Assembly: GCA_965242865.1 (NCBI GenBank)
Contig: CBDETK010000013.1
Location: 3,488,001-3,552,000, forward strand
Direction: 5' to 3'
Origin: Candidatus Latescibacterota bacterium
GTDB taxonomy: Bacteria; Latescibacterota; UBA2968; UBA8231
Length of the DNA: 64,000 bases
The translations under genes and the position numbers were made by a program. Under the pieces are notes generated by a model that saw only the letters and a program-made list of their open reading frames with translations, was not told where the DNA came from and did not search any database. This document shows, piece by piece, positions 11,646 to 47,982 of this stretch (position 1 is the stretch's first letter; the number at the start of each line of letters is the position of its first letter).

Positions 11646-13193
11646 CCCACCACCCGACACTCGGCGATCTCGAAACACCTTGTCCTCCCAACGCCGACCC
11701 GCGCGCCGGTCGAAAATCACTAAATGACCCGCCTCGGCCGCGCAACGGTCCATGTACTCGGCGGTCTGCGCCACCCCCTCGGCGATCGTCTGCTCCAAGC
11801 TCTTGTGGAGCACTTTGCACTCGATCACGAACTTGCGCTCCCGCTCGCCCTGTGGCCAGACGAGGAGCAGATCGGTGCGTTTCCGACCCAAGCCATACTC
11901 GCGCTCAATGCGCCCGCCGCTGTTGACGATCCGTTGCAAAAACGCCTGCAACAGCAACTGCGGACCAGCCTCTTGATATTGGAATCGCTTCACCCAATGC
12001 TCGGAGTGTTCGCGGAAGAAGGTCTGAAACGCGGTCAGCAGTTTGACCACGTCCAAGCGACCATCGGCAAGGACGTACCAGGCTGTTTCCTGATTAAATT
12101 CCTCTTGGATCACCCAGGTCAGTTCGCGGGGGATGACCTCGGCGTAGATCGGATTGGCGATGCGGAGGGGGCGATCTTGAGCCACGAGACCCAGATCGCG
12201 CACGTATTCGAGATCGCGGGCCGAGAAGTCGCTCTTTTCAGCTCCGCTCAACAGCGGCTCCACGATGCGCCGCACGCGCTCCTCTTGGAGCTTGTCCGCC
12301 AATTGGTCGAGGTGGGTTTCGCGGCGGAGGATGAGGTGCTCTTTCGCCGCGATGATGGCCGTCGCCGTGATTGGCTCGCGCTGGTCAGCGGCCCCATCGC
12401 GGAAGCAGGTTTGATCGGCCAAGGCATTGACCAGCCACGGCTGCCCTTGGGTCTGCGTCCAGATCGTCTCTAGGGCGTCGGCGGTAAACGCCTGCCCGGT
12501 CTCCTCAGTGTGTTGAGCGAGCAGTGCCTGCACCTCGTCGGGCGAAAAGTCGCCTAAGCGCAACGAGCGCGATTTGATGTTGAACGCGCTCCCTCCGGCG
12601 ATGGTGGCATTGGCCGAACTAGAATGGATGCGGTAGTCGCGCACATCGCGCACCCCGCATAGCACCACGCTTTGCGGAAACCCTGCTGGGCGCAGGTCAT
12701 ACCCCGCCCGCAACTGCCGCAACACAGACAGGAGGGCGTCGCCGATCAGGGCGTCGATCTCGTCGATGAGCAACACCAGCGGCTTGGGGGCCGCCGAGGC
12801 CCAGCGCGTCAACGCCTCCTGTAAGGCAAGGTCGGGACCGAACTCAGCGAGGATAGCGGGCCAAATTTCGCCCAAAAACTCATCGCCAAAGGTCAAACGC
12901 TCCCGAGACGCCAACCCGGCCAAAACGGTGCGCGTCACTCGTTCCACATCTTCGCGGGCGGCTTGCCCGCTTTCGACGTTGACGTACACGCAACGGTAGA
13001 GACCCTCGGCGTTGAGCAGGTCGCGCAGTGCCAGCAGGATAGAGGTCTTGCCCGTCTGCCGGGGCGCGTGTAGGACGAAGTACTTCTCGTCGCGGATGAG
13101 GGCGCACACATCGTCTAGATCTAGGCGTTCCAGCGGCGGGATGCAGTAATGCCTTTCGGGCTTGATAGGACCGGCGGTGGTGAAGAAGCGCAT
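11619..13193 (-). CDS. AAA-like P-loop ATPase with C-terminal PD-(D/E)XK-like domain
   Basis: HAPRQTGKTS Walker A, LLIDEID Walker B, C-terminal REYGLGRKRTDL...IECK. Confidence 0.85.
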   Translation of the reverse strand: MRFFTTAGPIKPERHYCIPPLERLDLDDVCALIRDEKYFVLHAPRQTGKTSILLALRDLLNAEGLYRCVYVNVESGQAAREDVERVTRTVLAGLASRERLTFGDEFLGEIWPAILAEFGPDLALQEALTRWASAAPKPLVLLIDEIDALIGDALLSVLRQLRAGYDLRPAGFPQSVVLCGVRDVRDYRIHSSSANATIAGGSAFNIKSRSLRLGDFSPDEVQALLAQHTEETGQAFTADALETIWTQTQGQPWLVNALADQTCFRDGAADQREPITATAIIAAKEHLILRRETHLDQLADKLQEERVRRIVEPLLSGAEKSDFSARDLEYVRDLGLVAQDRPLRIANPIYAEVIPRELTWVIQEEFNQETAWYVLADGRLDVVKLLTAFQTFFREHSEHWVKRFQYQEAGPQLLLQAFLQRIVNSGGRIEREYGLGRKRTDLLLVWPQGERERKFVIECKVLHKSLEQTIAEGVAQTAEYMDRCAAEAGHLVIFDRRAGRRWEDKVFRDRRVSGGGVAIDIWGL

Positions 13194-32727: not shown

Positions 32728-33044
32728 TGGACCGCCAAGCTAGGCGCACGCTCATTGCGGCGTGGTTGGTGGCTTCAGCCGGGCTGCTTTTCGCATTGGT
32801 CGCGCCCTATCTCGTGCCGGAGCAAACGCTTTTTTCCGCCAGCGCGGTCTTTGCGGTGCCGCATGGCCGCGGGGAGACGTGCGCTTTGTGCGGCATGACG
32901 CGGGCCTTCGCGGCCATTGCCCGGGGCGACTTTGCGGCGGCCCTTCTGTACAATCGAGGATCAGTCGCCTTTTACGGAGTTTTGCTCGCCAATTCGCTCG
33001 CGGTCGCCGCTTTCTTACTGCGGCGAATGCACAAAGGGAGGTAA
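32727..33044 (+). CDS. DUF2752-like membrane protein
   Basis: CALCGMTRAF...A..YN motif. Confidence 0.75.
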   Translation: MDRQARRTLIAAWLVASAGLLFALVAPYLVPEQTLFSASAVFAVPHGRGETCALCGMTRAFAAIARGDFAAALLYNRGSVAFYGVLLANSLAVAAFLLRRMHKGR

Positions 33045-33048
33045 CATC

Positions 33049-33297
33049 ATGCAGGTGCTTAGTTTGCTGTGGGGCATTCTGGCTATTGTTGGAATGGTCG
33101 TGGGGTTTTTCCCGTGTCTCGGCTCGCTAAACTGGCTCAACATACCTTTTGCCGGCGTCGGCATCATCGTCAGCGGCATCGCGCTCGGCACGGCGGGCGA
33201 CCAATCCAAAAGCACGGCCGCGGCTGGGCTGGTATGCTGTGTTGTGGCCCTGTTTTTTGGCATCATACGCCTCGCGCTCGGCGGGGGCGTTCTCTAG
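33049..33297 (+). CDS. Small membrane protein (DUF4190-like)
   Basis: GGAGG RBS; three hydrophobic segments, FPCLGSLNWLNIPFA. Confidence 0.7.
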   Translation: MQVLSLLWGILAIVGMVVGFFPCLGSLNWLNIPFAGVGIIVSGIALGTAGDQSKSTAAAGLVCCVVALFFGIIRLALGGGVL

Positions 33298-33301
33298 CCC
33301 C

Positions 33302-34597
33302 TTACGAGAGCCGCCCCTCTTTTTGCAGAATGTCCCCGGCAATCGCGTAGGTCGTGCCGTGCATGGCAATGACGACGAGGCCGATTCCGGCCGCGAGATA
33401 GCCCCCGAGATACAAGTTGGGTACGTCAATCGATTCGTAGTTGTGAGCGTGGGTCTGCACTTGCTCAACTTGGAATCGGTAGTTGTCGCGCATGGGCGTT
33501 AGGGTCAGCGGCGCAAAGCCCTGCACGATTGAATAATCGGCCACGCCGCCGATTTCCTTGATCACGTGATCGACCTCCACCACTTGCTCGCCGGCGGGCG
33601 TTTTCAGCCCGACCCGGCCGTCCTCGGCAATTTGGGTCACCTGGGTGTGATACGAGGTTTTGAGCCGGGGCGAGCGGCTTTCGAGGATTTCGGCGATGCG
33701 CTGGTAATAAGGCAACCCGTGGCGGCTGTCGTTGATTAGCTGCCAATGGACCGCTGGCCCTTGGCGCATGGCGTAATGCACTTGCTTGCCGGCGTCGTGC
33801 AATTCGGTCGCGGCCCAATCGCCCGAGCGCCCGCCGCCCACCACGAGCACCCGCTCGCCGGGGAAGTCTTCGGGCTTGTCGTAGTGCGCGGTGACCAAAG
33901 GACAAGTCTCGCCCTCAACCCCTAGTGACCGCAGGCGACCGCGCTGGCCGGTTGCCAAGACCAAGTACTTACAGGTGTAGCGTTGCTCAACGCCCGTTTG
34001 CACGTGCCGACTGGTGAGCTGAAAGCCCCGTTCGTGCGGTTCAATCCGCTCAACTTCCTCAAAGGTGCGAATGCGCTCGGCCACCCCAAAGCGCTCGGGC
34101 ACTCGGTGGTAGTACTCGATCAGGTCGGTCTTGAGGATTAGGGCGTTGACGTCTAAGGCGCGCCCGGCTTCTGCGGCGTACTGGGCCAGCGGATAAAAGG
34201 CAAACTCCATCCACTGGCCCGGCGACAAGGTCAACAGGTTTTGCGGTGCTCGGTTCCACAATCCGCCGACCGGCTCGCGGCTGATGAGCAGGGCGTCCAA
34301 TGGCTCGCCGCGCCGAAAGTCCATGGCGACTTGGTCTAGTTCCTCAAAGAGCTGGCGCGGGTGGTGCAGCGCGCGAAATAGGTCAACCGGCTTGATGCCG
34401 CTCTGCACGAGCTGGCGCATATCCAGCCCCAACAGCGAGCGGTCGAACTGCTGCAAGTACCGGGCGAGCGGCGCGTAGCGCGTGGCAAACATGCGGCTGT
34501 TGCGGAAAAAAGGATGCCAGCCGCCCAAAACTACGGCGAGGGGTAGGCCCGCTGGCCCCCCGCCGACGATGATGACGGTGTGGTGTTCTGTGCTCAT
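33302..34597 (-). CDS. FAD/NAD(P)-dependent oxidoreductase, OSGIN-like
   Basis: IIVGGGPAG, GGLW, LATG, VVGGGRSG; N-terminal layout resembles animal OSGIN1/2 (from recall). Confidence 0.8.
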   Translation of the reverse strand: MSTEHHTVIIVGGGPAGLPLAVVLGGWHPFFRNSRMFATRYAPLARYLQQFDRSLLGLDMRQLVQSGIKPVDLFRALHHPRQLFEELDQVAMDFRRGEPLDALLISREPVGGLWNRAPQNLLTLSPGQWMEFAFYPLAQYAAEAGRALDVNALILKTDLIEYYHRVPERFGVAERIRTFEEVERIEPHERGFQLTSRHVQTGVEQRYTCKYLVLATGQRGRLRSLGVEGETCPLVTAHYDKPEDFPGERVLVVGGGRSGDWAATELHDAGKQVHYAMRQGPAVHWQLINDSRHGLPYYQRIAEILESRSPRLKTSYHTQVTQIAEDGRVGLKTPAGEQVVEVDHVIKEIGGVADYSIVQGFAPLTLTPMRDNYRFQVEQVQTHAHNYESIDVPNLYLGGYLAAGIGLVVIAMHGTTYAIAGDILQKEGRLS

Positions 34598-34618
34598 CTC
34601 ATTTCAGTCGTTACAGTC

Positions 34619-34654
34619 GTTTCGATCTGCTTCCCTGCCGAAGCAAGGGGAGAC
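34619..34654 (-). repeat. Degenerate detached CRISPR repeat
   Basis: + strand GTTTCGATCTGCTTCCCTGCCGAAGCAAGGGGAGAC; last 14 nt identical to the consensus; 280 bp from the array. Confidence 0.85.
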
Positions 34655-34741
34655 ATAATTGGCAGTATTGGTAATATAGCAGTCCTAAGTAACTTGAAGG
34701 CATGAAATGTTGATTGGCACCGTCTTTTTTGCCTATGAGAA

Positions 34742-34766
34742 GTCATTCCCGCAACAGCGGGAATCC
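34742..34766. repeat. REP/dRS3-like palindrome
   Basis: GTCATTCCC-GCAACAGC-GGGAATCC (ATTCCC-N8-GGGAAT). Confidence 0.5.
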
Positions 34767-34934
34767 AGTTTTGAATGATATGGGATTGCTATTATGAACC
34801 GGGGTTTCTTGTTGGTCAATTGTGCGTATTGTGCAGATGCGGCGGGCTTGCCTGCCCTGTGAGGCTCCCAATCGCTACGATTATCCCAAAAGCGACTACA
34901 CAATTTGCATAAAAATGCTCGGCGTACCCGCACT

Positions 34935-37849
34935 GTTTCAATCCGCTCCCCTCACCAAAGCAAGGGGAGACTCGTTGACTTTGGCCCGCGCCTCCGATTA
35001 TTTCACGTTTCAATCCGCTCCCCTCACCAAAGCAAGGGGAGACATCATGGAATTACTCGTGCTGGCTGCCCTGGTCATGTTTCAATCCGCTCCCCTCACC
35101 AAAGCAAGGGGAGACAGCCGCAGCTCTTTGGCCAGCTCGCCGGTCAAGCTGTTTCAATCCGCTCCCCTCACCAAAGCAAGGGGAGACCCCGAAGACGTGC
35201 GCGACGAGGCGGTCATCCGGGTGTTTCAATCCGCTCCCCTCACCAAAGCAAGGGGAGACGGGTTAGTGCAGGGGGAAGCGTCGCTGTACAGCGGCGTTTC
35301 AATCCGCTCCCCTCACCAAAGCAAGGGGAGACGGGCGCTGGACTCCCCATCATACTCGAGGTAGCACCAGTTTCAATCCGCTCCCCTCACCAAAGCAAGG
35401 GGAGACCACGGGCATGACGACGGGCATGACGACGCCCATGAGTTTCAATCCGCTCCCCTCACCAAAGCAAGGGGAGACCCAAGTCGCTCGCCCGCACCGC
35501 CCGGCTAGAACGTAGTTTCAATCCGCTCCCCTCACCAAAGCAAGGGGAGACGCGAGCCCTTCTGCGGGATGGCTTCGATATTGCTCGTTTCAATCCGCTC
35601 CCCTCACCAAAGCAAGGGGAGACTTGGGGCTGGGGCGGACGTCAACGCGAAGGACAGAGTTTCAATCCGCTCCCCTCACCAAAGCAAGGGGAGACAAGGG
35701 ACAAGCGATACCGTGGTGCTGCATCTATTGTTTCAATCCGCTCCCCTCACCAAAGCAAGGGGAGACTCGCTCAGGTAGGCTACGATTACGTCCTTGCGCT
35801 TGTTTCAATCCGCTCCCCTCACCAAAGCAAGGGGAGACCGCGCCGTAACAGCACACCCACGTAGTTGATGGAGTTTCAATCCGCTCCCCTCACCAAAGCA
35901 AGGGGAGACGCGAGTTCGGCGGTGACCGCTGGCGATACAGTTTGTTTCAATCCGCTCCCCTCACCAAAGCAAGGGGAGACAACAAGGGGAACACGCGATT
36001 TCACGTGAGCGTAAAGTTTCAATCCGCTCCCCTCACCAAAGCAAGGGGAGACCGCCTCGCTGACGGATGGGCGTTACGTCATTTACGTTTCAATCCGCTC
36101 CCCTCACCAAAGCAAGGGGAGACCCGTCACGTCTCTCGTAGCGGCCGCGAACTGCAAGGTTTCAATCCGCTCCCCTCACCAAAGCAAGGGGAGACTGGGA
36201 ACCCTGTACCTTAGGGGGGCGGCGGCTTGGTTTCAATCCGCTCCCCTCACCAAAGCAAGGGGAGACGCCAATCTGATAGGCACAATCTACCAGGATGCCC
36301 TGTTTCAATCCGCTCCCCTCACCAAAGCAAGGGGAGACGCGTCGCGTCCGCGTAGAGGATCGCCGCGTCGGTGTTTCAATCCGCTCCCCTCACCAAAGCA
36401 AGGGGAGACTGCCGCACGCTGACCGAGGGCTTCATTGTCCTATGGGTTTCAATCCGCTCCCCTCACCAAAGCAAGGGGAGACGCGCCGCGCCCGCGAACA
36501 ACGACATGGCCCAGCGAAGTTTCAATCCGCTCCCCTCACCAAAGCAAGGGGAGACTTGCCAATTTATCCTTGCTTGGGTTGGCATGATAGGTTTCAATCC
36601 GCTCCCCTCACCAAAGCAAGGGGAGACCCGCTGTGTGTGTGTGCCGCGCTTGGCCGCGGCACAGTTTCAATCCGCTCCCCTCACCAAAGCAAGGGGAGAC
36701 CCCCGGCTTGGGGTGCGGCAGGGGGCGGCGGCAAGGTTTCAATCCGCTCCCCTCACCAAAGCAAGGGGAGACACCGCGGCTTCGAGCGGCTTGTGTTCCT
36801 CGCAATCGTTTCAATCCGCTCCCCTCACCAAAGCAAGGGGAGACATATCAGGCCTCCTTTTGGTTGGGTGGGTGGACTGTTTCAATCCGCTCCCCTCACC
36901 AAAGCAAGGGGAGACGGGCCGTCAAGCCCCGCAACAAGCACATGGGCTTTGTTTCAATCCGCTCCCCTCACCAAAGCAAGGGGAGACGGGGCGCGCGGGG
37001 CGTTCCCACTTGGCTGGATCTAGTTTCAATCCGCTCCCCTCACCAAAGCAAGGGGAGACCCGATCATGCCAACCCAAGCAAGGTTATTTGGCTATGTTTC
37101 AATCCGCTCCCCTCACCAAAGCAAGGGGAGACACCGCACCTGCAAGGCTACCCGCTCATTGTCGATGTTTCAATCCGCTCCCCTCACCAAAGCAAGGGGA
37201 GACAGCCCGAGGGGTAATTGGTCTTGCCGCATTAGCTTGTTTCAATCCGCTCCCCTCACCAAAGCAAGGGGAGACCAAGCGACCGCGCCCACGTCGGCAG
37301 CCGATACCGTGTTTCAATCCGCTCCCCTCACCAAAGCAAGGGGAGACAACCCGAATGCGGTCTTGTCGGCTTGTATTTTTCTGTTTCAATCCGCTCCCCT
37401 CACCAAAGCAAGGGGAGACCGGGCGTTGAAGCTGGGAGCACGGTATAAGAAGATGTTTCAATCCGCTCCCCTCACCAAAGCAAGGGGAGACAGAGTGGAT
37501 TGAAACTTTTTCTTTTTTCTTTGCGTGTTTCAATCCGCTCCCCTCACCAAAGCAAGGGGAGACATTTGCGGCTGGGCGGTGAGTGCGAGGTGATCGAGTT
37601 TCAATCCGCTCCCCTCACCAAAGCAAGGGGAGACAAGGTGGAACGTTGGGCCGGTCTCGCCCCCGGCCCGTTTCAATCCGCTCCCCTCACCAAAGCAAGG
37701 GGAGACGATGCGTTGGTCAAAACGACCACGAGCGCGAACACGTTTCAATCCGCTCCCCTCACCAAAGCAAGGGGAGACAGGTAGAGGATTTTCCCTACTC
37801 GCTCTCGCGCTTGTTTCAATCCGCTCCCCTCACCAAAGCAAGGGGAGAC
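34935..37849 (-). CRISPR. CRISPR array, 41 repeats of 37 bp and 40 spacers of about 34-37 bp
   Basis: Repeat in the transcribed orientation GTCTCCCCTTGCTTTGGTGAGGGGAGCGGATTGAAAC (hairpin + ATTGAAAC end); about 72-bp period; leader on the cas2 side. Confidence 0.99.
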
Positions 37850-38029
37850 TCCGGTTGCTGTAACCAGCGGAACAACAAAAGGTTACATAAGTGGATGCGC
37901 GAACCTCCTTTCTTCCGCATCCTACGGCCGAAGCGAGAGCATACTCCTCGCTGTAAATTATTGTTAGCCATAAAGTTGCTAACTGCGCGAAAGTAAGCGC
38001 AAAACGCCGTTGCTTCGCATTCGCGCATG
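37850..38029 (-). promoter_or_regulatory. CRISPR leader
   Basis: Non-coding, relatively AT-rich stretch between the cas2 stop and the first repeat. Confidence 0.8.
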
Positions 38030-38320
38030 CTATAAGACCAGTGGCTCATTCAAGTCCACGGGTTCGTTAAGTCCGTGATGCTCCGTCTTGCCTCTGGCGT
38101 CTTCGTCCAGATAATAAAACCTGAGAGAATCCTGCTTGGGATCAATTCCCTTTAGCAGGCGACTCCTAAGCACCGCCCATTCCGTTTTTCCCACCTGACA
38201 TTCAAAAAGCGATTTCTGCACTCGGACGCCGTAATCCTTACAGGCTCTTGCCACTTGGCGTAGCCGTCGTTGGCCAGCTCGGTCGGTAGTAGAAACGTCG
38301 TACGCGATCAGGATAAACAT
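38030..38320 (-). CDS. cas2: Cas2
   Basis: MFILIAYDVST...RRLRQVARAC..YGVRVQKSLFEC...DSLRFY. Confidence 0.97.
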   Translation of the reverse strand: MFILIAYDVSTTDRAGQRRLRQVARACKDYGVRVQKSLFECQVGKTEWAVLRSRLLKGIDPKQDSLRFYYLDEDARGKTEHHGLNEPVDLNEPLVL

Positions 38321-39375
38321 TATTTTGGAATGAAGGGGATATAGTCCGGGACATCGCCGCGGAGCTTGCGGGCCAACAATTTGGCCTGAATACTGAATAC
38401 TTGCCCCAAGCGGACATTCTGCTTGAATAGGGCGTGTTTTACTTCTGTTTGCTTGCGCCGTTGCCAAGCTTGGATGACCTCTCGCCTGCCTTGGTCGGTA
38501 AATTCTACGGCCCCGCCCTCTCGCTCGCGAAAGTGCTTGGCCTCGATCTGCCGTCGATTGATCAGGGTCAATGCCAGCCGCTCTGCCAAACAGGGTCGAA
38601 ACTCTTCCATGAGGTCTAAGGCGCAAGCCGGCCTTCCCGCTCGCGTTACATGAAGCCAGCCGACATAAGCGTCCAACCCAGCGGTCGTTAGCGCGGCTAA
38701 GCAATCGTGGCGCACCAAGGCATAAATAAAGGAAAGCAGGCAGTTTATCCGATCCCGGGGCGGACGCCGCGTCCGGGTTAAAAACCTGAAGTCTTCTCGC
38801 TGTTGTTTGAGCATACATTGGAACACCGAGAAGTAGGTCTTGGCCCCTAGCCCCTCTAAGCCCCTGATTGGGTCGAGTGCTTCCCTAAGCCCGCAGTCTG
38901 GGGCAATAGGTGGGGCAGCGCCGAGTTGGCGGATTAGCCGGGCCAGTTCATGCGCTGCATCTGCCAAGGCCGTGCGGTCGGCATCGCCATCGGCTTCCCG
39001 TCCGGCTCGCAAGAGATTGGAGCGTGCGTTTTGCAATTTTCCAGCGACGAATTGCCGGGCAATGCGCGCGGCCTCTTGCGGGCTGTCTGCTGCGGCATAC
39101 TGCGCCCGGCGCAGCAAGTAGCGGGTATCTCCGCTTCCCAAGACTTGTGCCAGCAAGTAGCCGTTCTCCGTGTGGTAATGAACCGCCACTTGATGATCCC
39201 AGCACAAGGCCATGGCCGGGGGCGTAACCACGACCCGCCCAAACGCACAAATGCTTTCCAAATGGTGAATCGGCACGGTCAGGCGATTTTGCTTTTCAAT
39301 CTCGACTCGCAACGTCAAGTGGTCCCTGTGTACCACAGTACCCGGCGTCGTCAAATAAAGAGTGTTTTGTTTCAA
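38320..39375 (-). CDS. cas1: Cas1 (type I-C)
   Basis: NTLYLTT, RGLEG..A..YF, RRPPRDRINCLLSF.Y, LDLMEEFRP. TTG 39375 with AGGGAG RBS is the likely start (track start 39411); both lie inside repeat-like DNA. Confidence 0.96.
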   Translation of the reverse strand: MKQNTLYLTTPGTVVHRDHLTLRVEIEKQNRLTVPIHHLESICAFGRVVVTPPAMALCWDHQVAVHYHTENGYLLAQVLGSGDTRYLLRRAQYAAADSPQEAARIARQFVAGKLQNARSNLLRAGREADGDADRTALADAAHELARLIRQLGAAPPIAPDCGLREALDPIRGLEGLGAKTYFSVFQCMLKQQREDFRFLTRTRRPPRDRINCLLSFIYALVRHDCLAALTTAGLDAYVGWLHVTRAGRPACALDLMEEFRPCLAERLALTLINRRQIEAKHFREREGGAVEFTDQGRREVIQAWQRRKQTEVKHALFKQNVRLGQVFSIQAKLLARKLRGDVPDYIPFIPK

Positions 39376-39454
39376 TCCGTCTCCCTGTTTCAATCCGTTT
39401 CCCTCACCCAAGCAAGAGGAGACGCTGATTGCCGTAACCAGCGGAATGACAAAA
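39369..39454 (-). repeat. Leader fragment + degenerate repeat + half repeat at the cas1 start
   Basis: 39387-39423 matches the repeat at 33/37; 39369-39386 is the repeat 3' half; 39424-39454 matches leader 37850-37880 at 25/31. Confidence 0.92.
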
Positions 39455-39480
39455 TCCTTAAATAGGAGATCCAGACGGGT

Positions 39481-40137
39481 CTAGTCGGTAGTATCGAACA
39501 CTGCCCGATAGGCCCGCGCCAGCGTGGGCGGAACACTGGTGATTTCGGGAAGGCAATGGTCGAAAAGCGAGCACTCGGAACATTGGGGTTTGTGAACAGC
39601 TTGTGGAACCGCGTCCTCCTCAATTATCCGGTGCATGGCTGCGATGGCCTGCTCGGTGAGGCGGCGCAAATCCTCGGTAAATTCCACCTCGCGGCGGCGC
39701 TTGCTCTTGGCGTGGAAGATGGCCCCGCGGGGAATGTCCCGTCCAAACATCTCTTCCAAACACAGGGCTTGCGCGCAAAGCTGGGCGTCGTCGTTGTCAA
39801 ACTTGCGGCGTTTGCCCTTTTTGAACTCGACCGGAACCAACGAACCATCGGGATGGCGTTCAACAATGTCGCACTTGCCGCTGAGCCGCAGCCGATCCGA
39901 CCAGACGGGCAGGGCGCGCAACAGCGTCACGCCCTTGACGGTTTCGTAGCCGGAAACGTCGGCCTGATCATGAAGTTGGCTCCCGACCACCGTATGCACG
40001 TTGTCGCTAAAGGTTCCCTCAACGTGAATTAAGGCCGCCCGGCGAGGGCAATAGAGATATTGATTGATAGAGGAGAGCGGGATGGTCCGCCCCCCACTAT
40101 CGAATGATTGAATCGGCAGGGTGCCCGTTTCATTCAT
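39481..40137 (-). CDS. cas4: Cas4
   Basis: YCPRR, GKCDIVE, PVEFKKG, QLCAQALCLEE, CSECSLFDHC Fe-S cysteines. Confidence 0.97.
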   Translation of the reverse strand: MNETGTLPIQSFDSGGRTIPLSSINQYLYCPRRAALIHVEGTFSDNVHTVVGSQLHDQADVSGYETVKGVTLLRALPVWSDRLRLSGKCDIVERHPDGSLVPVEFKKGKRRKFDNDDAQLCAQALCLEEMFGRDIPRGAIFHAKSKRRREVEFTEDLRRLTEQAIAAMHRIIEEDAVPQAVHKPQCSECSLFDHCLPEITSVPPTLARAYRAVFDTTD

Positions 40138-40173
40138 GTTTCAATCCGCCCCCGTACTCGGAGCCAAGGCGCC
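40138..40173 (-). repeat. Repeat-like hairpin + handle filling the cas7-cas4 gap
   Basis: TGA-GGCGCCTTGGCTCCGAGTACGGGGGCGGATTGAAAC-ATG; 15 of the last 16 nt match the repeat 3' end. Confidence 0.85.
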
Positions 40174-41130
40174 TCAGGCATGACGCTTGTGCAAGCGCAC
40201 ACCGGCCGGTAGGTCCGTGCTATCCCACCCACAGCTAACCTCGTAATCGGCAAAAGATTTGGGAAATTCCACGCTATCCTTCAACGTCACCTCAATGCCC
40301 TCGAAGAGCTTGTGAGCATGGGCGCAACCGAGGCGGGCTTCTCGCCTGTTCTGCGCGGCGTTGTTCTCGTGCTGGGTGCCGACATGCTCAAAGTCGTAGA
40401 TGCCGCGCACCGCCATTTCGCCGCGGGCGGCGGAGCGGTCATGCTCGAACATCTGGTTGAGTGCGTCAAAGAGAATGTCGAGATCGGCGTTGGTGAAACC
40501 CGTGCGCTCGGCAAAGGCCGGAGATACGTAAGCCTTGGCGGCATAGAGGGCGTAGGGCACAATGTGCTTGTTGCCCATGGTGCGTTCCTTCTCGGCGTCC
40601 TCTTCTTTGGTCACGGCCATGCGAGTAATGGAAATCTCCATCGGGGTGATAGGGTGGTACGACTGGCCGAAGGTAAATTGCACCGGGCCGCGCACTTGGC
40701 CCCAAGCAGAGCCTCTCATAATATCGTTACCGACAGCAAGCACACCACCAAAGGCACGGACATCAAAGAACTCGCGACACAGCCATTTCATGGCGGCTTC
40801 CTGTTGTTCGGATTTGGACGCACCCGAAGCCAAGCCCTCACCGCTTTTCTTAATGCCGTTGCTGATCTCATTGCTGAGCACGGCACCCTGCTTGATCAGC
40901 AGATTATAGCCGTTGGCCCCATTCTCCCCAATCCGCTCCGGGGAGAACATTTCGACGAAGTTCCGCACCTTGCGCTTAAGGCACACATCGGAGACGATGC
41001 CGCGGTTGGTATTGGGGTCAAGGCGCGGCATGTTGCCAGCATCGGGATCGCCGTTGGGATTGCCATTCGTGACATCGAAGATCAGCAACACATCGTGCCG
41101 ATTGGTGAGGATGTCGTTGAGTTTGTTCAT
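40174..41130 (-). CDS. cas7: Cas7c (Csd2)
   Basis: NGNPNGDPDAGNMPR, DVCLKRKVRN, DVRAFG, RGPVQ, TMGNKH, DRSAAR. Confidence 0.97.
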   Translation of the reverse strand: MNKLNDILTNRHDVLLIFDVTNGNPNGDPDAGNMPRLDPNTNRGIVSDVCLKRKVRNFVEMFSPERIGENGANGYNLLIKQGAVLSNEISNGIKKSGEGLASGASKSEQQEAAMKWLCREFFDVRAFGGVLAVGNDIMRGSAWGQVRGPVQFTFGQSYHPITPMEISITRMAVTKEEDAEKERTMGNKHIVPYALYAAKAYVSPAFAERTGFTNADLDILFDALNQMFEHDRSAARGEMAVRGIYDFEHVGTQHENNAAQNRREARLGCAHAHKLFEGIEVTLKDSVEFPKSFADYEVSCGWDSTDLPAGVRLHKRHA

Positions 41131-41151
41131 CGTTCAATCTCCTGTCAGGGG

Positions 41152-43020
41152 TTATTGGTTATCGGTTTCTTTGTTTTGCTTGGCCGCCTCGCGGGCGACG
41201 CGAGCTTCGGCTTTTTGCTGGTAAAAGCCGATGGCGAACCGCCCCTGCGCGTGCAGGTCCAGCGTGCGGGGAAATTGGTTGACCCGGGTCAACACATCTT
41301 GAATGGCTTCGTCGAGGAAACGCTCATGACCTTTATACTTGTCGGACTTGCCGATTTTGCTGAGGTGATGGCGGTTGAGTTTGAGAAGAACGGGAAACAC
41401 CGAGGCCGGCGAGGCCATGGCAGTGCCAAAGTACCGTTCGACAACGCCGGCACCTTCAAGCGAATAGTCATGCGCCTTGGCCTGAGTTTCGGCGAGGACA
41501 GCGAGCAATCGACCGCATTGATAGGCCGCATCGCCCGTATCGGCGGTTTGTCTTTCTGCAATCTCCATAATGTCGTCCTTTCTGTTTCGGTTTAGAATGA
41601 GTTTCGCCAAGGCGAAACGGGAATGGTTCGATAATGCCTTGCTCCCATCCTTGCTCCCATCGCACGCTATATCCACGCGCAGGCGGTTTAGTATGGGATG
41701 CAACAGAGTAAGTGAAGGGGCAGTCCCTTCCAGTGCGGCGCGAAATAATTGTGCGATCACTTCCGTTTTCAAATCCTTCGCATCGCGTACCGTAGCACAG
41801 GCCAGTCGGAATAGGCCCAACGGCGGCATCTTTTCCGTGCCAGATGGCGGACGCACAGGCTCCAAATCTAGATCGCTGAACCAGCGTCGCAAGCTTTCCG
41901 TAGCGATTTCCAAAGTAGTCTGCATCCAGTGGCGCACGACGATTCGCCCGCTGTTGCCCGCGAGAGTGACGGCATAGAACTGCTCCTGCCGCAACAACTC
42001 GCGCTCTTGTCCAGACCATGGGGATTTCAGAAAATCCGCCACGGCCTTGGGGTCAGCATCGTTAAGCAAAGCCCCCCAAGCACTCGTGGCGTTCGTTTTG
42101 TTGCGAGTCCAGAAGCAACAGATGGTCGGCCCAAGTCTGACTGAATGATCTCCTCTGAAAATCATGAACTTCAAGGCCTCCGTATAAGCCTTTGAAGCTT
42201 CCACGGAGCATGGCGCATTGCTACCTTGTTTCAAACCGAAAGAAGAAAAAGAGGGAGAAGACTTTTCGAATGAAACCAATCTTGAACCACTGGGTTGCCC
42301 TCCAGGTACGCGTTTGATTTCAGGATGCGAACGCTCGATCGGAACTTCATTATCTCCAGTTATCAAGCATAATCCCGTCTCAACTTGAAGCGACTCCTGT
42401 TCTTCCCGGAATACTTCTCTCCAATAAGGCTTAATACAGTCTTCTTCTTCCAAAACCAAATTACCTTCCACGTTAAACGAGAAATTGTCGGTGCCTAATT
42501 TGACTTTTTCCCCGCTAGATGTGGTAATCCACCACGCAGGTTTCTCATTTTTTTTTGGATTTTCACTCAAGTTCCATTCCAAAAAGGAAGGTATTTCGCC
42601 CCGCTCTAGCTGAAACTGTTTTATCGCCTTCAACAAGTGGTTCTGTGTAGCATGATGTGCGTCATTTATCTTTCTCCAAAAATCATCGAACTTGTCATTG
42701 TTATTTTTGTCCCGTTTTTCCTGTTGTGTAGGAGTCCGCTTCGTTCTCGATTCGGGATCACTTTCTAGTCTGAACAATGAGGTAATTCCATCTGCCAAAA
42801 AATCCCCGATTCCCCCTGCATTCTTATTTCCGACAGTTTTGGGGCACAGATAAATCTTTCCCTTGTTTTTGTTCTCTCCAACTGTTTCGATCGGCCCTTT
42901 GCCTACAAGTTTGCCATCAGAATCGATGGGGATAATCCAACGAACGGCCTTAGGTTCAAAGGCGGGATCATCGAGGAGTTTTCGAGAGTTCGCAAAGTCA
43001 TTCAAATGTTGCAGCAACAT
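41152..43020 (-). CDS. cas8c: Cas8c (Csd1)
   Basis: CLITG, LVSF, GNSGRIVVR, YQCGRLLAVL, FAIGFYQQ. Confidence 0.95.
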   Translation of the reverse strand: MLLQHLNDFANSRKLLDDPAFEPKAVRWIIPIDSDGKLVGKGPIETVGENKNKGKIYLCPKTVGNKNAGGIGDFLADGITSLFRLESDPESRTKRTPTQQEKRDKNNNDKFDDFWRKINDAHHATQNHLLKAIKQFQLERGEIPSFLEWNLSENPKKNEKPAWWITTSSGEKVKLGTDNFSFNVEGNLVLEEEDCIKPYWREVFREEQESLQVETGLCLITGDNEVPIERSHPEIKRVPGGQPSGSRLVSFEKSSPSFSSFGLKQGSNAPCSVEASKAYTEALKFMIFRGDHSVRLGPTICCFWTRNKTNATSAWGALLNDADPKAVADFLKSPWSGQERELLRQEQFYAVTLAGNSGRIVVRHWMQTTLEIATESLRRWFSDLDLEPVRPPSGTEKMPPLGLFRLACATVRDAKDLKTEVIAQLFRAALEGTAPSLTLLHPILNRLRVDIACDGSKDGSKALSNHSRFALAKLILNRNRKDDIMEIAERQTADTGDAAYQCGRLLAVLAETQAKAHDYSLEGAGVVERYFGTAMASPASVFPVLLKLNRHHLSKIGKSDKYKGHERFLDEAIQDVLTRVNQFPRTLDLHAQGRFAIGFYQQKAEARVAREAAKQNKETDNQ

Positions 43021-43022
43021 GA

Positions 43023-43826
43023 TCAGGCCCCTTTAGGTTCGAGGATTTCAACTTCATCGGGATGGCAAGCCAAGGTGGAATTCTCGATCTTGGCGCGGAA
43101 GAAACAGGCCCTCGGTTTCGCCAATTCGCCGACAAAACGCGGGGTATTCTTTTTTGGTTTGGGTCCTAGTTCGTCCGGGCGTTTCCAGCGAAAGCCCTCG
43201 GCTCGGGCGTTGGGTGAAAAAACATCGTAGAGCATCCAACCCAAGTCCTCCTCGGGCTGCCGCCAACTGGTACCAAGTTCGGCTGTTCGCTCTTCCATGG
43301 CAGTTTGGGGATCATCCACCCACTCGAAGTCCGCCGCAAATTCACGCATACCCAAGGCTGGCCGATGGAAGCACTTGCCCTGTTGGGCGCGGCGCTTGAA
43401 TTCAGCGAAATACTTCATCGGCGGGTCAGTCTTGCGATCCGCCAACGGCGTGGTACGCAACTCGGCACTGATGATGTACTCCACTTCCTGCAAAGCCAAC
43501 ATGTTGCGCTGGGTACCGTCGGGTGCGCCACCGCCTGCCTCAATAGGTTTGACCTTCTCCGGCTGAGCCATCCATTGACTGACGTTACGTAGGCTGATGA
43601 CCGACTGCACTTCATTGCGCCGAATGGAGGCCCAGCGGCCTCGCCGCACCACCCGGATGGCGGCGACGCGATAGCAGACTTGGGGCTCCCAAAAGACAGC
43701 TTCCAAGATGCCTCGGGCCGCAGAAGGCGTCATAATTGGATAACTGACGCGCTCCACTTTCATTTCAGGGCGGGTGAAACAGGCCCAGTCGCCCCAGACT
43801 CTCAGATGTACGTAGTTACCTTTCAT
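43023..43826 (-). CDS. cas5: Cas5d/Cas5c crRNA-processing endoribonuclease
   Basis: WGDWACFTRPEMKVERVSY..MTPSAARG, IRRNEV, LGMREF, DLGWMLYD. Confidence 0.97.
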   Translation of the reverse strand: MKGNYVHLRVWGDWACFTRPEMKVERVSYPIMTPSAARGILEAVFWEPQVCYRVAAIRVVRRGRWASIRRNEVQSVISLRNVSQWMAQPEKVKPIEAGGGAPDGTQRNMLALQEVEYIISAELRTTPLADRKTDPPMKYFAEFKRRAQQGKCFHRPALGMREFAADFEWVDDPQTAMEERTAELGTSWRQPEEDLGWMLYDVFSPNARAEGFRWKRPDELGPKPKKNTPRFVGELAKPRACFFRAKIENSTLACHPDEVEILEPKGA

Positions 43827-46075
43827 AGCAAAAAATCCTCGGTTGGGCGTGAACCAATAACCACGCCGAGATGTTCGTGATAAGCGGCCTCATCCAAAAC
43901 TCTGAGTTCCATGCCGGGGAGCAGTGGGCGGAGTAGCCCCATTGAATCCAACGCATGGAAATCGCGCAAATGCAGATTCACCATAAAGCGTTGGAGATCG
44001 CGCAAATCCTTGCGCGTGAAACGCGGACCACCCGTTTGAGCGCGTTCTCTGATGGCGTCCACTTCTTCCAAGGCTTGCTTCATTGGCGCGATGACAGCCT
44101 GCGTGTCATCGGTGATTACCTTGGCCTTGCGGGCCACTTCGCGGAAACGCAACGCCTCTCGATCTTCTTGAATGGGGCATTCCCGTTTGCGATCGTGATC
44201 CGTGGACACGCATTCAAAAAGCTCCGCAAAATAACGCCCGAACAACGCCGGCTCGCAAGACCAATCATCCGTAGCCAAATCATCCAACAACCGTGCCGCA
44301 ATGTCCGTGGCGACGCGATAGACGCCGCCGGGCAACTTGGCTTCTATTGGCCGGAACACCACCACGCGCCCTTTGTTCGGCAGGCGTCCTTCTCGATTGC
44401 ACCGTCCTGCCGCCTGCACAATCGAATCTAGCGGTCCCAAGGCTCGATAAACCAACGGAAAGTCAATATCCACCCCGGCCTCTACGACCTGCGTAGAAAC
44501 CAACCAGCAAAATCGACCTTCCCTTAAACGCCGACGAACCTTTTTCAACACTTGAGTTCGATGTTCTGCACACATAGCAGAAGAAAGATGGAATACACTT
44601 CTCAGCCTTGCTTCCAACCTATCTTTTGATAAGCCTTGCTCTTTCAAAGAATCTCTCAACATTTCCCACCATTCGGCGGCCTGCTTGCGCGTATTTACTA
44701 CCCCCAAGGCTTGGGGTTCGCTTGTCCATTCTGTGGCTAATCCAGACCAATCGCTCTCTGTCTTTCGCACCGAGTACGCTACCCGGCCCAACTTCTTAAA
44801 CAAGTCATCGGGTTGCGATACGAGTTCCTTTACTTCGCGCTCATCAAAACCATTCGACAACGATGTGCTACGCTTAAAGGCCGGTTGGGTCGCCGTAGAA
44901 AAAACAAAACTCACTCGGTAGTGTTTTTTGAGGTCGCGCAACACATGTAGGAGCGGATTGAGCAGATGTGCAGGTAGCGTTTGCACCTCATCCAGCAACA
45001 CCACAGAATTTGCGATGTTGTGTAGTTTCCGGCACTTAGAAGTGCGATTGGCAAAGAGGGACTCGATGAACTGCACCGAAGTGGTGACGATGATCGGCGC
45101 GTCCCAGTTCTCTGCCGCCAATTCCTCTGGGGACCGGCCTTGTTCGTCATTATCATCTTTTGGTGCGACGGCCGAATGGTGCTCAATCACGATGCCTTCG
45201 TCGTTGGGGTCGAGCACTTTGCGGTATTCGGCGGCGTTTTGCTCGATGATTGACAGATACGGTATCACCACGATCACCCGCTCCATGTCATGCCGTCGCG
45301 CATGTTCCAAGGCAAAGGCCATGCCCGAAAGCGTCTTGCCCCCGCCCGTCGGCACGGTTAAAAAAAAGAAGCCTGTCGGCTCCGCGGCCTTTGCCAAGCA
45401 GTCTTCAAACACGCGGTTACGCAACGCATTGAGTTCGCCCGAAGAATCAAACTCGCCCCGGTGCGCTTGCAGTCGCTCTAGTAACAACGCAGCGTCCAGC
45501 TTCAGCGAGCGTCGTTCTTGGCCACGGCTAAATTGTTCCGTATCCAGAAAATCCGCATCCACCAAACAGGAAAACAACATTCGCACGTAGAATTCTGCGA
45601 CAGCCTTGTCCTCTGCACACTTGGCAAATTCCGGTTCGGCTAACTCGTTGGGAATTTTCCCCAATTCATCTTCAAACCGTTTTACCAGAGGTACGAGCCG
45701 GTTCACAGCATCGTATTTCTCGCCGCCAACCAATGCCTGCAAATCACTCACGTCATGCAGCCCCGCATGGTGCCCAGCAATGGCAAAAGCTGGGCCGACC
45801 CACTCTCGTTGAAACGCTAAAGCGGCACCAAACACCGCATGATGCGTTTCAGCAGATCCTGGGCGTTTGCCTGCCAAGTATTCTTGGAATGGCTCCCGAT
45901 ATTTTCCTAAGTCGTGGAGTAGCCCAGCCCATTTCGCGGCGGGGCCGAGTGGTCCACCAAACTCCCGAGCCTTTTCCGCCACATTTCGCAAATGCTCGGA
46001 TAACGGTTGCCAGTGCGATTTATTCGGATCGCGTTCCCCAGCCTCCGTTTCAGCGGTGTGAGCGTAATAATTCAT
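43823..46075 (-). CDS. cas3: Cas3 HD nuclease-helicase
   Basis: HDLGK, HHAG, LVDAD, PTGGGKT, DEVQ, TATQP, QAAGRCNR. Confidence 0.98.
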   Translation of the reverse strand: MNYYAHTAETEAGERDPNKSHWQPLSEHLRNVAEKAREFGGPLGPAAKWAGLLHDLGKYREPFQEYLAGKRPGSAETHHAVFGAALAFQREWVGPAFAIAGHHAGLHDVSDLQALVGGEKYDAVNRLVPLVKRFEDELGKIPNELAEPEFAKCAEDKAVAEFYVRMLFSCLVDADFLDTEQFSRGQERRSLKLDAALLLERLQAHRGEFDSSGELNALRNRVFEDCLAKAAEPTGFFFLTVPTGGGKTLSGMAFALEHARRHDMERVIVVIPYLSIIEQNAAEYRKVLDPNDEGIVIEHHSAVAPKDDNDEQGRSPEELAAENWDAPIIVTTSVQFIESLFANRTSKCRKLHNIANSVVLLDEVQTLPAHLLNPLLHVLRDLKKHYRVSFVFSTATQPAFKRSTSLSNGFDEREVKELVSQPDDLFKKLGRVAYSVRKTESDWSGLATEWTSEPQALGVVNTRKQAAEWWEMLRDSLKEQGLSKDRLEARLRSVFHLSSAMCAEHRTQVLKKVRRRLREGRFCWLVSTQVVEAGVDIDFPLVYRALGPLDSIVQAAGRCNREGRLPNKGRVVVFRPIEAKLPGGVYRVATDIAARLLDDLATDDWSCEPALFGRYFAELFECVSTDHDRKRECPIQEDREALRFREVARKAKVITDDTQAVIAPMKQALEEVDAIRERAQTGGPRFTRKDLRDLQRFMVNLHLRDFHALDSMGLLRPLLPGMELRVLDEAAYHEHLGVVIGSRPTEDFLL

Positions 46076-46185
46076 TCAATTCTCTCCTGAAAATCTAACA
46101 TCTCCGCCCTAAAGTCGTGCTCCTCCTGCTTGGGGCTGGAGTGGTTTACTCAGCCAATGAACACTTCGTCCAGACACTTCCGCGC

Positions 46186-47982
46186 CTACCGCACCTCCTG
46201 CCGCACCGCAGTCATGGCCCCAAACGGATCCGGCCCCTGCAGCCGACGATGGGCCTCCTCGTCGCCCTTGAGATACCAGTCGAACCACGCCCGCGCATAC
46301 CAGTCGCGGATTACGTGGGGCAAATACACTTCGCCGGCATCGCCGACCGCGGCCCAGCCCAACTGAGTGTAGGGCTCCCCAGACGCACCCGGCGGCCCCA
46401 AGGCGCGCTCGCCCGTGGGCTTGCGAGTGCGCTCCGGGGTTTGGCCAAAGGGCCATTCGCCGCGCTGGAATTTCGGCCACGGGAAGAGCCGCGCAAAGTC
46501 CTCGGCCAAGGTGAAGTGGTCCGTGTCGCGCACAATCGCCAGTACGCGGTCTGAGGTGGTGCGCCGCCAAGCACTCAACGCCACGGGCTGGGGATTCTCT
46601 ATGCGTTCGGGCAGAGCGCGTTCTAAGTCCAAGGGGAATGCCTCGGCCGGATCGCCCCCGGCCCGCGCCACGGCCGCCTGAAACAGGCTGACGAACACGT
46701 TTTGCACAAAATCGTCCTCGTCGCCGATGAGCAGCAGCAGGGGCTTGTGGCTGCCCACCGGCAGGCCCTCCTCGGTTTGGCCCGCGCCGTACATTTCCTC
46801 GGGCGTCCACGCGAAGGGCGGAGCGTTGTTCAGGCCCATGGCCGCGCTAATACCGGGCAGGTGGTTGGCCGCCAACTGCGCCGTCATCGACCCGAGCGAA
46901 TGCCCGGCAAGACCGACGCGCTCGCCGTCAATGCGCCCGTTGAGCAGCCCGCACAGATCGCGAGCAGCACTGGTGGCCCCCATCGAGGCGAGCCCGGTGC
47001 GGCAGGTGGCTTCGCCCGCGCCGAGCAGGCGCACGGTATGTAGCACCAGCCCCACATCCGACACGCGCTGGCGGAACAGGTTGCGCATCATGGTGGTGGC
47101 GCGCTCCACGCCACCGGGGACCACTTTGGCCGTGGCCGGGTCGAAATGCGCTGGCGGCGCAAACCCCCGACCCTCCTGCCCGAAGAGCAAGCGGTAGAAA
47201 TAGGGAACGACCTTGTACTGGCCCAAGAGCAACTCGTAGGCCCGCTTGAGTTCCTCCGGCGACGCGCTCGCGGCAAAAGGCGAGTCCTCATCGTGAAACA
47301 CCAGCGGCAAGCCGCCGTCGGAAACAAAGGTGGGGGCCGCGACCACATACCCGTGCGAAGCGAGAAATTCGGCAAAGGAACTCCACATGCCGTGGTTGCC
47401 GGCCAGCCCGTGCGCGAGGAGAATCAGCGGGAACGGGCCGTCCGCGGCCCGAGCATCTTGCCACGCGCCCTGCGGCGCATTGAGAATCCGCTGGCCGATT
47501 TCGGCGAATGCCGCTTCCTGCGCCGCCGGATCAGCTTCGGCCAGAATGCCGCCGGGCAGGTGGATGAAATGGGGCAGGACCACCTGGGCTGCCGCGCCGA
47601 GCGTCCGCGCCATGTCGCCGGCTTGAAAGAAGAAATCGTAGTAGTTGGCCCGTCGGCCGCTCGTCGCAGCAAAGGGCGAGCGCGGCCCGGCGAGCCGCCC
47701 CGGCACTGGGTCCGGCACCGCTGGATACCACAACTGAAAGACCACCGTGCGGGTCTGTCCGGCGGCTTCTACCTCCCGCAGTAGAGCGCGGTATTCGGGA
47801 CCGGCATACGCGCTGTTCCAAGGGTCGAAACGCTGGCGATTGTCCACGGCAAAACCCGTGGCCACGCCCACGGCGTAGTCGCCGTAAACGGCACTTACCG
47901 GCAATTGGTCCATTTGCGCTCGGGCGCTCAAGGCCGACGCGAAAATCGCGACCAACGCGGCGGCTGTTGCTCTTCTGTCCAT
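46186..47982 (-). CDS. Secreted alpha/beta hydrolase (PAF-AH/chlorophyllase-like)
   Basis: Signal peptide, QLWYPA, PLILLAHG, LASHGYVV, GHSLG nucleophile elbow. Confidence 0.75.
   Translation of the reverse strand: MDRRATAAALVAIFASALSARAQMDQLPVSAVYGDYAVGVATGFAVDNRQRFDPWNSAYAGPEYRALLREVEAAGQTRTVVFQLWYPAVPDPVPGRLAGPRSPFAATSGRRANYYDFFFQAGDMARTLGAAAQVVLPHFIHLPGGILAEADPAAQEAAFAEIGQRILNAPQGAWQDARAADGPFPLILLAHGLAGNHGMWSSFAEFLASHGYVVAAPTFVSDGGLPLVFHDEDSPFAASASPEELKRAYELLLGQYKVVPYFYRLLFGQEGRGFAPPAHFDPATAKVVPGGVERATTMMRNLFRQRVSDVGLVLHTVRLLGAGEATCRTGLASMGATSAARDLCGLLNGRIDGERVGLAGHSLGSMTAQLAANHLPGISAAMGLNNAPPFAWTPEEMYGAGQTEEGLPVGSHKPLLLLIGDEDDFVQNVFVSLFQAAVARAGGDPAEAFPLDLERALPERIENPQPVALSAWRRTTSDRVLAIVRDTDHFTLAEDFARLFPWPKFQRGEWPFGQTPERTRKPTGERALGPPGASGEPYTQLGWAAVGDAGEVYLPHVIRDWYARAWFDWYLKGDEEAHRRLQGPDPFGAMTAVRQEVR

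Follow-up and report, generated by a model that had tools for sequence, protein, structure and literature searches.

Analysis of the window, which is the whole 64,000-nucleotide stretch of DNA considered here, demonstrated that the gap between cas7 and cas4 of its type I-C CRISPR-Cas operon genuinely derives from the CRISPR repeat and belongs to a known class of objects, the single repeat units. Sequence comparison suggests, with a probability of roughly 55%, that this repeat relic has been taken over as the leader and ribosome-binding region of cas4. The features that appear to support this reading are an exact and non-random handle (the 3′ end of the repeat), fuller copies at the same junction, repeat-free relatives, recurrent half repeats, and decay of the stem. 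The homology of the element to the repeat, its orthology, position, dispensability, and decay, and the repeat origin of the leader were each established in the analysis.

Organization of the Type I-C Locus

The genes on the minus strand constitute a complete type I-C operon in the order cas3-cas5d-cas8c-cas7-cas4-cas1-cas2-array, as determined from ORFs and NCBIfam profiles (Table 1). The cas7 stop codon occupies positions 40174–40176 and the cas4 ATG positions 40135–40137, and the cas4 product has the N-terminus MNET, as in relatives. No repeat element was found at the cas1-cas2 junction of the window, where the two genes overlap. The 16S rRNA of the organism has a canonical 3′ end (..CACCUCCUU) with the anti-Shine-Dalgarno (anti-SD) sequence. 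On the minus strand, the leaders of cas7 (CAGGAGATTGAACG-ATG, 41131–41148) and cas3 (CAGGAGAGAATTGA-ATG, 46076–46092) also look like an SD sequence plus handle. Since relatives mostly carry ordinary SD leaders at these two places, with nothing repeat-like upstream, the likeness was treated as coincidence.

Table 1. Features of the type I-C locus in the window and crRNA-like candidates in other type I-C loci.
Feature	Position	Strand	Basis or remark
cas3	43823–46075	−	ORFs, NCBIfam
cas5d, 267 aa	43023–43826	−	NCBIfam; F45-K138-Y139 at catalytic-triad positions
cas8c	41152–43020	−	ORFs, NCBIfam
cas7/csd2, 318 aa	40174–41130	−	TIGR02589, 293.6 bits
Decayed single repeat unit, whole cas7-cas4 gap	40138–40173	−	Smith-Waterman against own repeat; fuller orthologous copies
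Vestigial stem-loop: CTCC(G), short loop, GGGGG	40149–40163	−	Folds
11-nt handle CGGATTGAAAC	40138–40148	−	Same as repeat 3′ end; adjoins cas4 ATG
cas4, 218 aa	39481–40137	−	TIGR00372, 130 bits
Near-full stray repeat (33/37), cas4-cas1 gap	39387–39423	−	
Half repeat AGGGAGACGGATTGAAAC, 18 nt	39369–39386	−	Holds TTG at 39373–39375
cas1 (type I-C)	about 38320–39375	−	TIGR03640, 418.6 bits
cas2	38030–38320	−	Overlaps cas1 stop (TAATG)
CRISPR array, 41 repeats of GTCTCCCCTTGCTTTGGTGAGGGGAGCGGATTGAAAC (transcription direction), 37 nt each	34934–37849	−	
crRNA-like candidates, cas3-cas5 gaps (230–370 nt)	L074:7367, L097:7436, L105:7370, L107:7417, L110:7463		
crRNA-like candidates, about 170–190 nt upstream of cas3	L123:1005, L127:96, L138:1026		

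Descent of the Gap Element From the CRISPR Repeat

On the minus strand, the gap reads GGCGCCTTGGCTCCGAGTACGGGGGCGGATTGAAAC and is followed by the cas4 ATG without spacing. The initial annotation had described it as about one repeat long, with an exact handle abutting the cas4 start. Both points were confirmed: the gap measures 36 nt against 37 nt for the array repeat, and its final 12 bases are the final 12 bases of the repeat. This 12-mer (GCGGATTGAAAC) occurs exactly 42 times in the window, namely in the 41 array repeats and in the gap. The chance expectation with one mismatch allowed is 0.45 matches, and more than three matches were obtained in none of 100 shuffles. In the whole 6.0-Mb genome, the 11-mer handle was found 46 times (41 copies in the array, three in two cas gaps, and two elsewhere), and the reversed control gave 0 matches. 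A Smith-Waterman score of 16 between the gap and the locus’s own repeat was reached by none of 200 shuffles. A blastn-short search at 14 or more identities did not list the gap element, and a 16-bp BLASTN threshold could miss such copies. The element lies outside the array, in the intergenic space between cas7 and cas4 and 2.3 kb from the array. The exact 12-mer, the genome counts, and the alignment score beyond shuffles indicate a repeat origin for both the handle and the 3′ arm of the stem.

Predicted Folding of the Gap Element

The array repeat folds at −17.6 kcal/mol (z = −3.2) into a strong hairpin of 11 pairs followed by an unpaired tail. For the gap element, the predicted energy was −9.7 kcal/mol, and 85 of 200 dinucleotide shuffles folded as well. 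The CTCCG/CGGGG stem proposed in the initial annotation can form and is present in the minimum-energy fold, but it is no better than that of shuffled sequence. The structure said to be retained is not significant in the window copy, whether judged by the whole fold (z = −0.09) or by the 4-bp helix that closes at the expected cut site (P = 0.73 against shuffles). CUCC...GGGG of the gap pairs in the register of the bottom four pairs of the array hairpin, so that the gap may be read as a repeat minus its upper stem and loop.

The handle is unpaired when the element is folded alone. In a 141-nt context fold, codons 9–14 or so of cas4 can pair with the handle and the start AUG (GAUUGAA with UUCAAUC; window 40090–40150, minus strand), and this fold as a whole is no better than shuffles (z = +0.54). 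The G-run of the 3′ arm is the sole SD-like run ahead of cas4, and its distance of 11 nt to the ATG is the longest SD spacing of the operon.

Searches for other RNA signals were negative. Rfam at E ≤ 1 over positions 33000–47000 returned only a chance miRNA-like match inside the array. No intrinsic terminator site was found in the gap, where the hairpin is followed by GGAUUGAAAC, and a promoter and terminator scan of positions 37800–46500 found nothing in or beside the gap, with totals not above those of shuffles.

The cas7-cas4 Junction in Related Operons

Junctions were gathered from 7 related genomes, 80 genome contigs (by Cas7 alignment), and 32 metagenome contigs. The two genes were adjacent in 82 of 88 sequences of the genome set and in 26 of 32 of the metagenome set. 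The Cas7 metagenome scan (32 loci, 26 with cas7 and cas4) added one orthologue only, L117. Besides the window, five loci have a repeat-like element at this junction: G025, L033, L034, L117, and G008. The copies are about 42 nt long in G025 (L026) and L033 and 36 nt long in L034 and L117, and in these four loci the handle ends 0–2 nt ahead of the cas4 ATG. G008 (L031) belongs to a distant I-C branch with a 32-nt repeat, and a degenerate copy of that repeat lies 25 nt upstream of its cas4. This copy is absent from its sisters and is separate from those of the window subclade. A hairpin-like remnant without the handle was found at the junction of L062.

Four close relatives, L035, L037, L038, and L059, have no cas7-cas4 gap at all, and in the first three of them the end of cas7 and the beginning of cas4 overlap (CGTCATGA..). 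The system can thus dispense with the element. Each of the four has an array, with between 9 and 108 repeats. A repeat element was likewise absent from this junction in about 100 I-C loci of more distant kinship. The initial annotation had named the lack of the handle in homologous operons as an observation that would count against Cas5d recognition; the handle proved to be kept in four relatives and absent in the four close ones just described. The element is therefore inherited within a small subclade of type I-C operons.

Weak Smith-Waterman scores (P = 0.01–0.05 of 200 shuffles) were excluded for L028, L029, L041, L047, L085, L102, and L110; in L028 and L029, the weak match may be what is left of the insertion seen in G008. 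When the five gap elements and the array repeat were aligned with MAFFT, the 5′ arms fell out of structural register, and pairs were listed per sequence instead. The handle of L034 is identical to that of the window at 12 of 12 positions although the cas7 genes share about 80% nucleotide identity. Selection could account for this identity; so, equally well, could arrays with a common handle, as the source of independent copies or of gene conversion.

An extra gene occupies the cas7-cas4 gap instead in three close relatives, L027 (G019; oriented 1853–2248), L064 (10942–11370), and L036 (11027–11425). It is retropepsin-like and about 131 aa long, and the L027 copy matches PF13975 with 32.9 bits (cut-off, 28.2). 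In L040 (10934–11257), L048 (10929–11291), and L049 (10939–11274), the gap is filled by a different conserved ORF, about 110 aa long and with the motif MPEI..LFISPHA..F..RIAP...RPFPFEFRAFCVFD; the L040 copy had no Pfam match. In a genome of the same genus, L032 (G002) is a broken I-C remnant in which fragments of cas7 (residues 131–250), cas4 (96–131), and cas1 (1–113) are joined.

Stray Repeats at Other Junctions and Probable Repeat-Derived Start Codons

The second repeat mimic proposed in the initial annotation, at cas1, is also real. The cas4-cas1 gap of the window contains a repeat copy matching at 33 of 37 positions together with an 18-nt half repeat; the stem base of the former is broken by two C·A mismatches, and the latter is without a 5′ arm. 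The cas1 start is likely the TTG inside the half repeat, which is preceded by GGGAGA. Homology to Cas1 begins at residue 15 of the ORF starting at 39411, and all three in-frame start candidates (39411, 39393, and 39375) lie in repeat-derived sequence.

Stray repeats are located between cas4 and cas1 in the window, G019, G025, L033, L034, and L064, between cas1 and cas2 in L033, G025, L035, L117, and G004, and between cas3 and cas5 in L035. The junction repeats are in sense orientation throughout, and the handle adjoins or contains the start codon. A uniform scan with the last 12 bases of each locus’s own repeat, one mismatch allowed, covered 119 loci and 808 kb of cas operons. It yielded 22 sense matches (21 distinct) and six antisense matches, with 1 + 1 for the reversed controls. 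Eleven of the 21 distinct sense matches either overlap a cas4, cas1, or cas2 start or precede it by 0–25 nt.

In the window and in G019, TTG codons within repeat-derived sequence are the sole plausible cas1 starts, the best being a handle TTG 4–5 nt after GGGAGA, and a handle TTG behind GGAGAG or GGAGCG is the best cas2 start in L035 and L117; over the cas1 and cas2 cases together, the spacing is 4–6 nt. Half repeats consisting of the 3′ arm and handle only recur, twice in the window and also in L034, L035, and L117. The handle TTGs behind SD-like runs, together with the canonical 16S end, suggest that the repeat brings with its 3′ end everything needed to start translation and has been put to this use.

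Structure among these elements is uneven. The stem base comprises at most 4 bp in 10 of 18 junction repeats, including both cas1 elements of the window, and a helix beyond shuffles at P ≤ 0.05 was found in two of the 18. The cas7-cas4 copies of G025 and L033 form a 13-bp hairpin (−23.9 and −21.5 kcal/mol, respectively), which begins 5 nt past the cas7 stop, includes the SD-like arm of cas4, and pairs its 5′ end GUCCG with CGGAU, the first five bases of the handle. The two hairpins differ by one compensatory change, from C-G to U-A, and a second compensatory change restores a pair in the cas4-cas1 element of G019 (L027). These two changes show that some relatives select for RNA structure, which the window copies have lost. 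In G025 and L033, selection seems to act on a stable hairpin with an SD-like arm and not on a free handle; a 13-bp hairpin that buries CGGAU fits sequestering or coupling of a ribosome-binding site rather than a Cas5c substrate.

Further observations were made in individual loci. In L035, a repeat-like element within about 45 nt upstream of cas5 ends in TGGATTGAAAC and abuts the cas5 ATG, and cas3 and cas5 overlap in other relatives. L033 has repeat-derived elements ahead of cas4, cas1, and cas2 (10985–11005, 11646–11680, and 12744–12790, respectively), so that each of these genes is bracketed like an oversized spacer. In the distant I-C locus L030 (G004), a 29/32 copy of the 32-nt repeat (3235–3265) adjoins the stop codon of cas1 and is separated from the cas2 ATG by 12 nt; it appears to be a young, independent insertion. 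For the I-C operon of G025 (C1:672502–679649), the 7 kb that follow cas2 contain no array. The genome of G025 holds 256 matches to the repeat 3′ end, and the matches listed lie about 300 kb from the operon.

Proposed Origin and Role of the cas4 Leader

It is proposed that a single CRISPR repeat unit entered, by copying or recombination, the boundary that separates the effector genes (cas3 to cas7) from the adaptation genes (cas4 to cas2), probably in an ancestor of the small type I-C subclade. This insertion would have broken the ancestral overlap of cas7 and cas4, which is still present in the repeat-free relatives. Since then, the 3′ end of the repeat would have served as the entire untranslated leader of cas4, with the G-run as the only SD-like motif and the handle as the spacer up to the ATG; the role in translation is suggested by this arrangement. 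At cas1 of the window, a relic of the same kind may supply both the SD sequence and the TTG at which translation starts. In the window, the loop and the upper part of the stem have eroded, and the remaining part may persist by descent and as the translation-initiation region of cas4. Cas5d or Cascade may still contact the gap RNA as a side effect, but the element is probably not a dedicated gate.

Several points stand against this account. The distance of 11 nt to the ATG makes the G-run ill suited to ribosome binding. Constraint on translation initiation and constraint on Cas5d recognition would fit the retained parts alike. Moreover, the compensatory changes at the cas7-cas4 junction of L033 and the cas4-cas1 junction of L027 point to structure selected in some relatives.

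Alternative Explanations

A first alternative is that the stray repeats mark, and may promote, exchange between effector and adaptation modules, leaving a recombination scar or hot spot without a role in expression. This is a tentative possibility that we would not favor as the whole explanation, and it can hold together with the use of the relic as a leader. Trees of Cas7, Cas4, and Cas1 from 17 loci disagree: the window groups with G025 and L033 in the Cas7 tree (99/93) and with G019 in the Cas1 tree (97/96), and it is without a supported partner in the Cas4 tree. Sliding nucleotide identity to L033 and G025 is 90–97% over most of cas7, drops at the cas7 3′ end and the gap, and is 72–90% in cas4, and identity to G019 rises up to 87–96% in cas1-cas2. 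Relatives have other insertions at the same junction, namely the retropepsin-like ORF and the ORF of about 110 aa. The tree conflict, identity shifts, stray repeats, and inserted ORFs indicate that the effector-adaptation boundary is a place of exchange and insertion. Exchange at the boundary fits the suggestion in the text of Shmakov et al. (PMC10120712) that repeat units may serve recombination, although the repeat is not thereby proven to be its cause. However, the switch of identity to G019 takes place inside cas4 and not at the repeat between cas4 and cas1, and 12–37 bp offer little homology for recombination.

The initial annotation had proposed that the element acts as a gate for Cas5d. 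According to this model, the mRNA would be recognized at the repeat mimic through the stem base and the 11-nt handle, and a predicted cut 11 nt before the cas4 AUG would separate the Cascade mRNA from the adaptation mRNA, with the cas1 element acting alike; the resulting cas4 mRNA would be tagged with the handle and perhaps occupied by Cas5 and Cas7. Cas5c/Cas5d has been reported to read the stem base, the cut site, and a single-stranded 3′ overhang, to leave an 11-nt tag, and to tolerate changes in the loop and 5′ overhang (PMC5965381; PMC8524198). The 11-nt overhang of repeat sequence is present in the gap, partly paired in the 141-nt context fold, and the full handle and the G before it are intact. 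The strongest point for the model is that the window element keeps just the 3′ arm of the stem and the handle, the parts that Cas5c reportedly reads. CUCC...GGGG is also in register with the bottom four pairs of the array hairpin, a cut at the predicted site would leave an 11-nt leader stripped of the G-run, and the junction repeats are all sense. The compensatory changes in L033 (cas7-cas4) and L027 (cas4-cas1) are likewise consistent with it, as is the reported in vivo activity of the type I-C repeat mimic RacrIC1 on a bicistronic mRNA (PMC10651486).

Against these points, the window hairpin is no better than chance, and the cas1 elements are decayed, with two stem-base mismatches in the first and no 5′ arm in the second. 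A stem base of at most 4 bp in 10 of the 18 junction repeats and the four close relatives that have large arrays without the element also speak against a gate. The best-kept orthologues, G025 and L033, hide CGGAU of the handle, which Cas5c needs single-stranded, in their 13-bp stem. Furthermore, Cas5d of the window has F-K-Y where every solved Cas5c aligned has a Y/H-K-H triad, which makes its cleavage chemistry putative. In an alignment that is otherwise good, F45, K138, and Y139 stand where 3KG4, 3VZI, and 8DEJ have Y/H, K, and H. The triad His is replaced by Tyr in 35 of 68 I-C loci scored, 33 of these 35 having Phe at the first position, and the Tyr-type loci essentially coincide with the 37-nt-repeat clade. 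In the 33 classical loci, with repeats of 31–33 nt, the residues are H/Y, then K (G in two), then H. The large arrays in the F-K-Y clade indicate that something processes array transcripts there. Taken together, stem decay, dispensability, the buried handle of the best-kept copies, and the unusual Cas5d weaken a dedicated gate, which by sequence comparison is possible but doubtful.

An extension of this idea, which we consider improbable, treats the adaptation genes as giant spacers between repeat units in the order repeat-cas4-repeat-cas1-repeat-cas2-array, an arrangement that is complete in L033. Cas5d would dice the transcript and thereby link expression of the adaptation genes to free Cascade subunits. 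If so, dicing would yield monocistronic mRNAs with handle-capped 5′ ends and hairpin tails, and free Cas5 and Cas7 would assemble on the handle-tagged 5′ ends of the cas4, cas1, and cas2 mRNAs. Expression of Cas4, Cas1, and Cas2 would then be tied to Cascade subunits not yet loaded with crRNA, giving a direct feedback between interference capacity and spacer uptake.

It is very unlikely that the element is a regulatory crRNA-like guide of the CreR/crlRNA kind, in which the repeat and the bases downstream of it direct Cascade to repress a promoter. Such elements are described in type I loci in the CreR/crlRNA literature, and clear examples with a repeat, a guide of 25–35 nt, and a terminator hairpin were found in other I-C loci surveyed. 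However, the would-be guide in the window is cas4 coding sequence, no second repeat or terminator follows it (the next repeat-like sequence is 714 nt downstream, at 39423), and no promoter-like site is present in or near the gap. A search of the 64-kb window for a PAM-flanked partial target returned the self match and one match without a PAM, with 0.85 for shuffled guides, and a CreR-like target search of the window with three pseudo-guides returned only self matches and array repeats. The candidates for crRNA-like RNA genes in classical I-C loci (Table 1) each consist of a repeat end, about 25–35 nt, and a terminator-like hairpin; the candidate guides of L074 and L110 are alike, and L105 also has a two-repeat mini-array (4484–4553).

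Finally, the reading that an ordinary ribosome-binding region resembles the repeat end by chance has next to no probability and is refuted by the orthologues: GGAG(N)ATTGA(A) is found in the leaders of cas7 and cas3 too, so that an SD sequence plus ATTGA can arise without a repeat, but the 12/12 match occurs nowhere else outside the array and relatives have full-length repeat copies at the same site.

Implications of Repeat-Derived Leaders

Stray CRISPR repeats in cas loci are common and mostly unexplained unless they form regulatory mini-arrays. The use of a repeat relic as the cas4 leader suggests a second fate for them, as leaders or start codons. In one I-C clade, the 3′ ends of repeats (G-rich arm, handle, and TTG) seem to have repeatedly become leaders or starts of adaptation genes, at junctions where gene modules also exchange, which bears on models of how effector and adaptation modules are uncoupled. 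For annotation, it follows that the starts of cas1 and cas2 can fall inside repeat-like sequence. These operons also offer a natural test bed for the question of whether a crRNA nuclease processes cas mRNAs as well.

Comparison With Known Systems

Intercistronic hairpins can sequester a downstream ribosome-binding site and thereby couple or attenuate translation. The 13-bp hairpin of G025 and L033, which holds the SD-like arm of cas4, resembles such hairpins but differs from them in its origin from a CRISPR repeat, and the window copy has lost most of it. Synthetic operon mRNAs are cut into units with the help of engineered Cas6f/Csy4 hairpins. The Cas5d-gate model would be a natural counterpart of this cutting, and no natural case was found in the literature searched.

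The gap element shares degenerate repeats within a cas locus with the CreR/CreA/crlRNA mini-arrays (Liu et al., 2023, preprint, and others), in which the repeats are reported to be read by Cas proteins. Those mini-arrays are described as having a short guide that can pair in part with a promoter, and in most cases another degenerate repeat, and the gap element is without either. RacrIC1 is an RNA anti-CRISPR that mimics a solitary type I-C repeat (Camara-Wilpert et al., 2023; PMC10651486). Like the gap element, it is located on the mRNA of a protein gene, and it is reported to be able to engage I-C Cas proteins. RacrIC1 is encoded by a mobile element and inhibits immunity, whereas the gap element is decayed and belongs to the host’s own cas operon. 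Identity with a Racr was rejected, as the element is inside the host cas operon and not on a phage, plasmid, or other mobile element.

The closest likeness is to the single repeat units of Shmakov et al. (2023; PMC10120712). Of the 1206 I-C loci in that study, 34% were reported to contain one or more repeat-like sequences and 7% to contain mini-arrays. Enrichment was described in long intergenic regions near cas3 (I-E, I-D, and I-F1) or cas6 (I-B), and many single repeat units were regarded as spurious duplications, with some conserved and of unknown function. The gap element agrees with these units as a degraded copy of the locus’s own repeat that is intergenic in a cas locus and conserved in some related loci. 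It differs in that the I-C cas7-cas4 junction, the fusion of a handle to a start codon, and Cas5d are not mentioned in the text of that study. Full-text searches likewise found no description of type I-C repeat-like elements next to cas4 or cas1 in this arrangement, nor of natural processing of cas mRNAs at standalone repeats. Relative to the literature searched, the new features are therefore the location within the operon at adaptation-gene junctions, the fusion of the handle to start codons, and the clade-wide recurrence.
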